DNA from: Betaproteobacteria bacterium RIFCSPLOWO2_02_64_14
Lineage (GTDB): Bacteria > Pseudomonadota > Gammaproteobacteria > Burkholderiales > SG8-41
DNA: 64,000 nucleotides
Assembly (NCBI GenBank): GCA_001770325.1
Contig: MEQT01000068.1
Location: 26,741 to 90,740, forward strand
Direction: 5' to 3'
Part shown: positions 46,018 to 49,024 of the stretch, in pieces
How positions within the stretch are numbered: position 1 is the first letter of the stretch
How the letters are laid out: every line of letters starts with the position of its first letter
Translations under genes and position numbers: made by a program
The notes under the pieces: model-generated
What the model saw: the letters and a program-made list of their open reading frames with translations, nothing else
Told to the model about the DNA's origin: nothing
The model's database searches: none

Positions 46018-46437
46018 CTATTTCTTGCGCAGCTTGCGAATCGCCGCAAGCTGGGCAGCCATCATCGCGAACTCGGCCTGAAGGGTGGCGATTTCCTGCT
46101 TGTCCTGCGACTTCGCCATGGCCTCCTGGGCGGCGCGCAGTGCTTCGTTCGCCTTCGCCTCATCGAGGTCGTGGCCGCGGATTGCGGTGTCAGCCAGCAC
46201 GGTAATCACCCCCGGCTGCACCTCGAGTATGCCGCCCGCGACAAAAATCAATTCTTCGTCACCGCCTCCCGCCGGAAGAATCCGCACCGCTCCCGGCTTG
46301 ATCCGTGTGATGAGCGGCGTGTGGCGCGGATAGATGCCGAGTTCGCCGGCCTCGCCCGGCAGCACCACGAACTGCGCCTCGCCGGAGTAGATCGACTCTT
46401 CGGCGCTGACAACGTCAACCCGCATGGTGGTCGCCAT
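46018..46437 (-). CDS. atpC: ATP synthase F1 epsilon subunit
   Basis: Starts [21 protein letters not shown], with the ATG 2 nt after the atpD stop. The upstream ORF extension is rejected. Confidence 0.9.
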
Positions 46438-46439
46438 GA

Positions 46440-47888
<1,449 letters not shown>

Positions 47889-47889
47889 T

Positions 47890-48160
47890 TAGAACCTATC
47901 TCAATAATGGACGCGTGATGCGTTGTGGCCAGAACGCGATGAATGCTAGGAGCGGGGCGCAGCCCATATCGCGAATATGGGCAAGCCACGCGACAACGCA
48001 GGCGCGCGTTCTGGCCACAACCCGAAGGGACGGGGCGATCTGGGCGCATTTCGTCGTCGGCCTCCCTTGCAATATTCGCGATATTGCTGCACTCGCCCTC
48101 CTAGAACTGCATCCCACATCGCCTCCGTCGCACACGTGCCCATTATTGAGATAGGTTCTA
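47890..48160. mobile_element. MITE-like non-coding element with 21-bp perfect terminal inverted repeats, inserted between atpG and atpD
   Basis: TAGAACCTATCTCAATAATGG at 47890-47910 is the exact reverse complement of 48140-48160. There is an internal perfect 17-bp inverted repeat (47922-38 / 48005-21) and two 7-bp-stem hairpins (47963-81, 48069-87). No credible ORF is present. The termini are TA-flanked or TA-terminal. Confidence 0.7.
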
Positions 48161-49024
48161 GACGGCGGCCGCGCCGCCGACGATTTCAGAGAGTTCTTTG
48201 GTGATCGCGGCCTGGCGGTTCTTGTTGTAAACGAGCGTAAGCTCGTCGATGAGAGTGGCGGCATTGTCGGAGGCCGCCTTCATCGCCACCATCCGCGCCG
48301 ATTGCTCAGAGGCCATGCTCTCGGCGACCGCATGATAAATGATGGTCTCGACATAGCGCGTCAATACCTGGTCGAGCACCGATTTGGCATCCGGCTCGTA
48401 AATGTAGTCCCAAACCCCCTGCGGCACGCCCAGCCCCTCGGGACCGGCGAGCGGCAGCAGCTGACTGATGGTCGGCTCCTGCTTCATGGTATTGAGGAAG
48501 CGGCTCGACGCGATCATGACCCGGTCGAAGCGGTCCTGCATATAGCCGTCCAGCATGATTTTCACCGCGCCGATCAAGCGGTCCATTTGCGGGCGGTCGC
48601 CCAGCTGGACTGCCGAGGAGACGATGCTCGCGCCGAGTCGCTGCATGAAGCCCAGCCCCTTGTTGCCGATACAGCAGACGTCGATCTCCTCACCCTGCGT
48701 CTGCCAGTCCTTGTACTGCTGCAGCGTCAGGCGCAGCAGGTTCGTGTTAAGCGCCCCGCACAGTCCCTTGTCCGTGGTCACCACGATCACGCCCACGCGC
48801 TTGACGGTGTCGCGTTCGACCAGGAACGGGTGCCGGTACTCGGGATTGGCATGGCTGATGTGCGCCGCAATCGCTCGGATCTTCTCGCTGTAGGGCCGGA
48901 TCGCGCGCATGCGTTCCTGCGCCCGGCGCATTTTCGAGGCCGCGACCATCTCCATCGCCTTGGTGATCTTCCGGGTATTCTGCACGCTCCGGATCTTGAG
49001 GCGGATTTCCTTGGTTCCTGGCAT
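48158..49024 (-). CDS. atpG: ATP synthase F1 gamma subunit
   Basis: 288 aa, from [33 protein letters not shown] to the C-terminal [15 protein letters not shown]. Its TAG stop lies inside the terminal repeat of the adjacent element. Confidence 0.95.

Follow-up and report, generated by a model that had tools for sequence, protein, structure and literature searches.

The atp operon in the window (the whole 64-kb stretch of DNA that was analysed) is located on the minus strand, with the gene order atpH-atpA-atpG-atpD-atpC according to Pfam, and a short palindromic element is inserted between atpG and atpD. As a result, the atpG-atpD spacer is 287 nt long in the window, compared with 18-26 nt in relatives, which bears out the remark in the first-pass annotation that it is unusually long. 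The features of the locus are as follows:

46440..47870, minus strand: atpD (F1 beta subunit, 476 aa), beside the retained native spacer
47871..47889, minus strand: native atpG-atpD spacer, ATCACCAGGAACCAAGACC, with an AGGA ribosome-binding site, kept downstream of the element
47890..48160, no strand: the whole MITE, 271 bp, consisting of a 267-bp core (GAACC...GGTTC) with a TA on each side
47890..47891, no strand: left TA, on the atpD side, one of the two target copies; in empty alleles there is just one TA (GTC TA GTCACC)
47892..47917, plus strand: A-side terminal inverted repeat (TIR), GAACCTATCTCAATAATGG(ACGCGTG), of which the first 15-16 nt are the inverted repeats of an IS5-family clade
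47922..48021, no strand: A-half branch, a 17-bp perfect stem (47922-38 versus 48005-21) around hairpin 1 (47963-81, CCCATAT-CGCGA-ATATGGG)
48026..48132, no strand: B-half branch, an imperfect long hairpin with hairpin 2 (48069-87, GCAATAT-TCGCG-ATATTGC) at its tip
48133..48158, minus strand: B-side TIR, the reverse complement of the A-side TIR; 28 nt, 93% complementary
48159..48160, no strand: right TA, on the atpG side, the second of the two target copies
48158..49024, minus strand: atpG (F1 gamma subunit, 288 aa), whose stop codon overlaps the end of the element

Further downstream, the longest ORF that can be drawn for atpC (window positions 46018-46521) encodes 167 aa from a GTG start and overlaps the end of atpD by 82 nt. 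In the calls made on metagenome contigs, atpC is 139 aa long and begins 3 nt past the end of atpD, so the long ORF has probably been extended too far.

The element is an imperfect palindrome made up of the TIRs, an inner stem and two small hairpins. It can be aligned end to end with its own reverse complement at about 70% identity, in agreement with the earlier description of its halves as inverted copies of each other. The other structural details described from the sequence also stood up to comparison: positions 47890-47910 are the exact reverse complement of 48140-48160, the two arms of the 17-nt inverted repeat are 100% complementary, and the cores of the two small hairpins, ATATCGCGAATAT and ATATTCGCGATAT, are exact reverse complements. 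The TIRs are perfect over 21 nt, and the repeat runs on to 28 nt at 93% complementarity. When up to three mismatches were allowed, the TIR 21-mer was found at only two places in the window, and there were no matches in 100 shuffles. Neither the 21-mer scan nor a self-alignment revealed a second copy of the element within the 64 kb. The element contains only short ORFs that overlap each other, as had been noted, and no transposase, and its copies elsewhere differ by indels and module swaps, which is incompatible with a conserved ORF.

The element has the general properties of a bacterial MITE, being bounded by TIRs, shorter than about 600 bp, non-coding and multi-copy, with a target duplication and an empty site. 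For the MITE family to which it belongs, Rfam, the plasmid and viral collections and the literature searched contained no match. A permissive Rfam scan of the element region gave only chance-level matches (E >=2), blastn of the 271-bp element against plasmids and a scan of viral contigs for the TIR gave none, and the TIR string was not found in a full-text literature search.

The atpG stop codon, TAG, is formed by the right TA (48159..48160, minus strand) and the terminal G of the element at 48158. This is how the first-pass annotation had read it, except that it took the ancestral stop to be TAA, which turned out to be wrong, as the ancestral stop was already TAG. As G is the first base of the element and C the last, the junctions on both outward strands read TAG, and the atpG stop is thus rebuilt. 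The native ribosome-binding site and the atpD start are intact, 19 nt downstream of the element. Together with the rebuilt stop, this explains how an insertion in an essential operon could be tolerated. The element entered the TA of the atpG stop within the palindrome C-TA-G, duplicating the TA. Close translational coupling between atpG and atpD would be lost by the insertion, which takes the spacing from 18 nt to 287 nt.

A look-up of the window AtpG protein led to six metagenome contigs, and further AtpG relatives were fetched. Two of the six contigs are filled, one (L006) is empty, and three break or diverge inside the element, as expected for a multi-copy repeat. The empty junction of L006 reads GCCGCCGTC TAG TCACCAGGAACCAAGACC ATG. 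Its atpG is 98.6% identical to that of the window, and on the atpD side there is a single mismatch in 169 nt, located at the base beside the insertion. L057, with an AtpG that is 99% identical, has the same empty site as L006. Empty sites are also found in L058 and L059 (AtpG 90%; GTC TAG CTACCAGGAACC...ATG) and in L055 and L056 (AtpG 91%), where a TGA stop is followed by 26 nt. L054 (AtpG 97%) is filled, with a TIR that has decayed (TAGAGCCTATCTCAATAGTGG). Several strains and samples carry the insertion, and a single species-level population contains both filled and empty alleles.

That close relatives would lack the element at the atpG-atpD junction had been predicted, and the junction alignment shows it for L006 and L057. 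The precise sequence predicted for the empty junction was also found in these two, but for one base: the stop reads TAG TCACC... rather than TAA TCACC.... The empty junctions in the relatives thus indicate an ancestral C-TA-G junction in which the stop was TAG. The filled allele, ...GGTTC TA ATCACC, differs by one G-to-A change directly beside the right TA as read on this strand. At window position 47889 (minus strand), all filled alleles have A and all empty alleles have G.

Copies at the atp locus in two other samples depart from the window element. In L002 (1220-1486), a tract of eight changes swaps hairpin 1 to TTAATAT...ATATTAA, and the copy in L003 (3865-4069) runs into the extra GC-rich module of a 340-bp variant. 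Both could be gene conversion mosaics or metagenome assembly chimeras. The triple compensatory change in the L002 hairpin was considered as evidence for selection on RNA and rejected, as it is part of the eight-change tract in a contig that is otherwise 99.5% identical; gene conversion from another copy or an assembly chimera is the more likely source of the tract.

Species-representative genomes and JGI metagenomes were each scanned once for the exact TIR, and chance hits were removed. The scans yielded about 15 independent sites at unrelated loci in MAGs and metagenomes of uncultured Betaproteobacteria, in line with the earlier claim that this is a non-autonomous, TIR-bounded mobile element. 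The genome matches were in four “Betaproteobacteria bacterium” MAGs and in one contig binned as Streptomycetaceae (CAYYZZ010000055.1), which carries a 335-bp copy (L013:1046-1380). The presence of this copy in an actinobacterial MAG is probably due to mis-binning, or else to horizontal spread. The family lives in uncultured Burkholderiales-like Betaproteobacteria.

All copies are intergenic, and none contains a transposase. Versions of 271 bp are present in the window and in L008, L012, L042 and L044, while versions of 335-400 bp with extra GC-rich modules occur in L009, L013 and L040/L050. An optional GC-rich module of about 70 nt is found in other copies at the junction between the A-half and the B-half. 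At the other extreme are deletion stumps of 49-120 bp that consist of scarcely more than the two TIRs (L027, L029, L036, L038 and L052). The same TIR encloses three different interiors, represented by the window type, L045 and L048, and the sharing of the TIR alone is predicted for an end that is recognised by a transposase. The L042 copy is 98.9% identical to the window element and lies at a different locus; it was rejected as an orthologue of the atp site, since its locus adjoins a rhodanese-like ORF.

The first-pass annotation had proposed counting the copies with TA flanks, and at the roughly 15 sites the GAACC...GGTTC core is flanked by TA/TA in six cases, by TA plus TG or CA in five and by otherwise degenerate dinucleotides in four. 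Outside the TA, the commonest base pattern is C...G. Non-TA flanks account for 11/30, seven of them CA/TG, far above what the divergence inside the copies would lead one to expect. The CA/TG flanks (7/30; for example L008:230-231/499-500 and L042:627-628/896-897) always represent a T to C change at the T of an inward-reading 5'-TAG, for which a VSP-like repair bias at (C)TAG might be one cause. Direct repeats of 3 or 4 bp were not seen at any of the copies. A 3-bp duplication (TNA/TWA) was dismissed because no site has matching 3-mers, and a 4-bp duplication (CTAG/YTAR) because the apparent 4-mers come from the terminal G and C of the element itself. A scheme without any duplication, in which the TA is part of the TIR, is contradicted by the empty sites.

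Because of its ends, TA-G...C-TA, the element restores a TAG stop whichever way round it is inserted into the TA of a TAA or TAG codon. Pfam-verified genes that end on TA plus the first G of the element were found at five sites, comprising six ends (the transposase pseudogene in L050 was counted as an end and not as a functional gene):

Window: atpG
L044: AI-2E transporter gene
L010: T2SS-F gene
L050: SCPU-domain gene at one end and truncated transposase pseudogene ORF at the other end
L009:1183-1582 (MAG SAW11, contig JBQTJV010000100.1): NuoCD/HycE-like gene (fused Complex1_30kDa+49kDa)

The 400-bp copy in L009 is intercistronic, lying between the NuoCD/HycE-like gene and a NuoB-like (Oxidored_q6) gene that follows it, and has the same orientation relative to transcription as the atp copy. 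About half of the stop codons in the host genome are TAA or TAG, and 2/20 of the CTAG sites in the window outside the element are on stop codons. Dedicated targeting of stop codons was rejected, as the landings (5/17 sites) exceed the 10-20% roughly expected by only a small margin; a preference for T(A) targets combined with selection against gene disruption suffices to explain them. With respect to transcription, the copies are oriented 5 versus 2, which is not a significant bias.

The ends of the element point to the kind of transposase that would have mobilised it. The first 15-16 terminal bases of the MITE, GAACCTATCTCAATA, are those of the inverted repeats of a clade of IS5-family ISs (DUF4096+DDE_Tnp_1) with members in Vibrio, Klebsiella, Rhodocyclales and Ca. 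Symbiobacter. When the TIR was compared with plasmid sequences by relaxed blastn, TTAGAACCTATCTCAATA turned up seven times in a single Vibrio campbellii plasmid (NZ_CP026317), where it forms the left terminus of an IS5-family IS of 868 bp that is present in multiple copies. The left repeat of the Vibrio IS (L064), TTA followed by GAACCTATCTCAATAGG, matches the MITE TIR at 15/16 positions, and its transposase, with DUF4096+DDE_Tnp_1, is frameshifted. The ends from Klebsiella, Rhodocyclales, Ca. Symbiobacter and L074, a clade member on a metagenome contig, match at 12-14/16. Taken as a whole, the inverted repeats of the clade, GA(A/G)CCTAT(C/T)(T/C)CA(A/G)TAGG, match at 12-15/16 in register at the terminus. 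The 18-mer match that led to this clade has by itself a BLAST E-value of about 10, and it carries weight because it falls exactly in register at the IS termini in several clade members. At the amino-acid level, the identity of the clade members is 69% for Klebsiella and 57-58% for the Rhodocyclales MAG and Ca. Symbiobacter mobilis, and ISBugl2 and IS1421 are more distantly related. The clade is also present in Burkholderiales.

These ISs share with the MITE the terminus GA(A/G)CCTATC(T/C)CA(A/G)TA..., and their repeats of about 17-19 nt have a G right after a T(W)A target, giving junctions of TAG or TAA. In contrast to the MITE, they are autonomous elements of 870-940 bp (868 bp in Vibrio) that encode a transposase, and their repeats diverge from those of the MITE after position 16 (…TAGG… versus …TAATGG…). 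Every full-length IS with a similar TIR that was examined has a 3-bp TTA/TAA duplication as opposed to the 2-bp TA of the MITE, so that the MITE and its related ISs do not match in the length and type of duplication. However, IS427-group ISs of the IS5 family in Paracoccus mostly make 2-bp direct repeats (PMC3281130), and IS1301 from Neisseria duplicates TA within AYTAG (PMC2193550), which places a 2-bp TA duplication within the range of the IS5 family; these two, both autonomous ISs, were compared with the MITE by their duplications alone.

A transposase-bearing element with the exact TIR was not found in the genome, metagenome, viral and plasmid scans, in which the host genomes were fragmentary. 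No IS of the IS5 clade was found on the MITE-bearing contigs, and tblastn detected no homologue of the Vibrio transposase in the window, nor in the roughly 300 kb of host loci that were fetched. From the terminal 15-16 nt, which are the inverted repeats of this clade, we infer that an IS5-family DDE transposase (DUF4096+DDE_Tnp_1, IS427/IS1031-like clade) would have moved the MITE in trans.

The same terminal 15 nt as in the MITE, GAACCTATCTCAATA, also delimit an unannotated 135-bp MITE in L071 (1201-1341), which corresponds to positions ~2806-2946 of Shigella dysenteriae plasmid pSD197_spA, NC_009344.1 (element ~2809-2943). Its TIRs, GAACCTATCTCAATAGG, are perfect over 17 nt, its target duplication is TTA, and it adjoins a copy of IS1; the same 18-mer is also present in E. 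coli plasmids of about 9-16 kb. Like the atp element, the Shigella MITE is non-coding and TIR-bounded, but it differs in its 135-bp length, its unrelated, AT-rich interior, its 3-bp TTA duplication and its gammaproteobacterial hosts. Judging from its ends, it appears to descend from the IS5 clade that includes the ISs of Vibrio and Klebsiella, which suggests that this clade produces MITEs.

The first-pass annotation had instead assigned the element to the IS630/Tc1 type. According to this view, it would be a MITE of the IS630/Tc1-mariner type, moved by a DDE_3 transposase with the TA of CTAG as its target. We regard this as unlikely, and the attribution is probably wrong. It would account for the TA duplication inside a C-TA-G target, and IS630-family elements from related metagenomes show the same junctions, C-TA-G...C-TA-G. 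However, IS5/IS427-group elements also duplicate TA (PMC3281130, PMC2193550), so that the duplication is not diagnostic of IS630/Tc1, and the TIR matches the ends of the IS630-family elements L061 and L063, which represent one IS630 subgroup, at only 6/16 terminal bases, as against 12-15/16 for the IS5 clade.

A truncated DDE_3 pseudogene (L050:5736-6125; also in L040) adjoins one of the MITE copies, a 340-bp version, and would fit an IS630 origin, but this remnant, which has lost both of its ends, is not part of the MITE and lies beside it. Its frame ends on the TAG of the MITE, and at the other end of the same copy a Spore-Coat-Protein-U-domain gene ends on TAG. The DDE_3 ORF was rejected as the autonomous partner of the MITE, being a pseudogene fragment whose full-length relatives have unrelated TIRs. 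These relatives (L060-L063) end in C-TA-GTACGGTAACAC... and have the same junction pattern as the MITE. They represent a widespread IS630-family IS of about 1.2 kb, with an orfA with HTH domains (147 aa) and an orfB with DDE_3 (219 aa), and their ends, C-TA-GTACGGTAACACATTAATTACG..., also give CTAG junctions.

A precedent for an IS630-type MITE is RUP of S. pneumoniae, which is likewise small, TIR-bounded and intergenic, with a TA target, and whose TIRs resemble those of a resident IS, IS630-Spn1 (PMC2229807). RUP is derived from IS630, is 107 bp long and has a known partner, whereas the TIR of the MITE is unlike the IS630 ends examined.

The element would be transcribed within the atp mRNA by read-through, and it contains no sigma-70-like promoter or intrinsic terminator and no terminator-like T-run. 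The minus-strand transcript (316 nt) is predicted to fold at -164.1 kcal/mol, compared with -116 ± 5.8 for shuffled sequences (z = -8.2). The predicted fold is Y-shaped, with two branches and a TIR closing stem of at least 23 bp that starts at the atpG stop codon. The long double-stranded RNA that had been claimed for the atp mRNA is thus supported by the predicted fold, on the premise of co-transcription. In an alignment of ten copies, 6/85 consensus pairs keep their pairing through changes on both sides. All six are located in the A-half stem and hairpin 1, and there is no covariation in the B-half branch. The covariation in the A-half would fit selection on structure, but also selection on transposition, mutation templated by the palindrome, or gene conversion among the copies.

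A further possibility is that the element was transposed in and is now kept as an exapted RNA module, its double-stranded RNA serving as an RNase III/RNase E processing or stability boundary that would uncouple gamma and beta expression. This is compatible with the best explanation of the origin of the element, but we hold it to be rather improbable. In its favour are the very stable predicted fold, with the atpG stop at the start of the 5' arm of its closing stem, the stem pairs that are kept by double-sided changes, and the second intercistronic copy in a bioenergetic operon, between the NuoCD-like and NuoB-like genes and in the same orientation. However, the element is present in some and absent from other strains that are 98.6-99% identical, which shows that it is not needed, and the TIR in L054 is decaying. 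Moreover, the covariation is confined to one half and may have other causes, the orientation of the copies is not significantly biased, and many copies are deletion stumps.

Precedents for such a role exist in the Correia/NEMIS elements of Neisseria and ERIC of enterobacteria, which are likewise palindromic repeats at TA targets and are co-transcribed within operons (PMC2229807). The RNA hairpins of Correia elements are reported substrates of RNase III, and those of ERIC are reported to modulate decay by RNase E (PMC2229807). They differ from the MITE in length (107-155 bp or 127 bp versus 271 bp) and have no sequence relationship to it. By analogy, the atp copy of the MITE may work like Correia or ERIC RNA. 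Cleavage of the element RNA by RNase III would be possible, as reported for Correia (PMC2229807), and the 5' arm of the closing stem would be melted by ribosomes that reach the atpG stop, resembling the ERIC mechanism. A regulatory effect on atp expression, mRNA processing or translational coupling is hypothetical.

More speculatively, the family as a whole might be adapted to the stop codons and intercistronic gaps of highly expressed operons, with a double-stranded RNA anchored at the stop codon acting as a translation-sensitive processing or stability switch. This we consider very unlikely; if it were true, such a switch would reset the gamma:beta expression ratio in the atp operon and the NuoCD:NuoB ratio.

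Finally, the element could be imagined to be native to the atp operon and not mobile, as a conserved, structured RNA between two cistrons or as a riboswitch or attenuator. Its strong predicted structure and its intercistronic position would fit this notion, but it has practically no probability left. It is refuted by the empty junctions of relatives whose AtpG is 90-99% identical (L006, L057, L058/59 and L055/56) and by the dispersed copies at unrelated loci, and the element has neither an Rfam match nor a terminator-like T-run.

The element is real, is present in only some strains and is of an ordinary kind. The reading that we consider probable is that of a bacterial MITE from an unmatched family that was inserted at the TA of the atpG stop, was mobilised in trans by a transposase of the IS5 clade and is carried as a tolerated passenger. 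The atp element is most likely such a passenger, since nearly identical strains do without it.

With the atp insertion, a further MITE family comes to light, which in these searches was confined to uncultured Betaproteobacteria. The insertion illustrates that a TA duplication alone is insufficient to establish IS630/Tc1 ancestry, as the sequence of the TIR points to a clade of the IS5 family. It also provides a clean natural case of a transposon in an essential, stoichiometry-sensitive operon that was not destroyed by the insertion, because the ends of the element rebuild the stop codon. The filled and empty alleles in near-identical strains constitute a natural experiment on the effect of a 270-nt double-stranded RNA insert on mRNA processing and subunit ratios.
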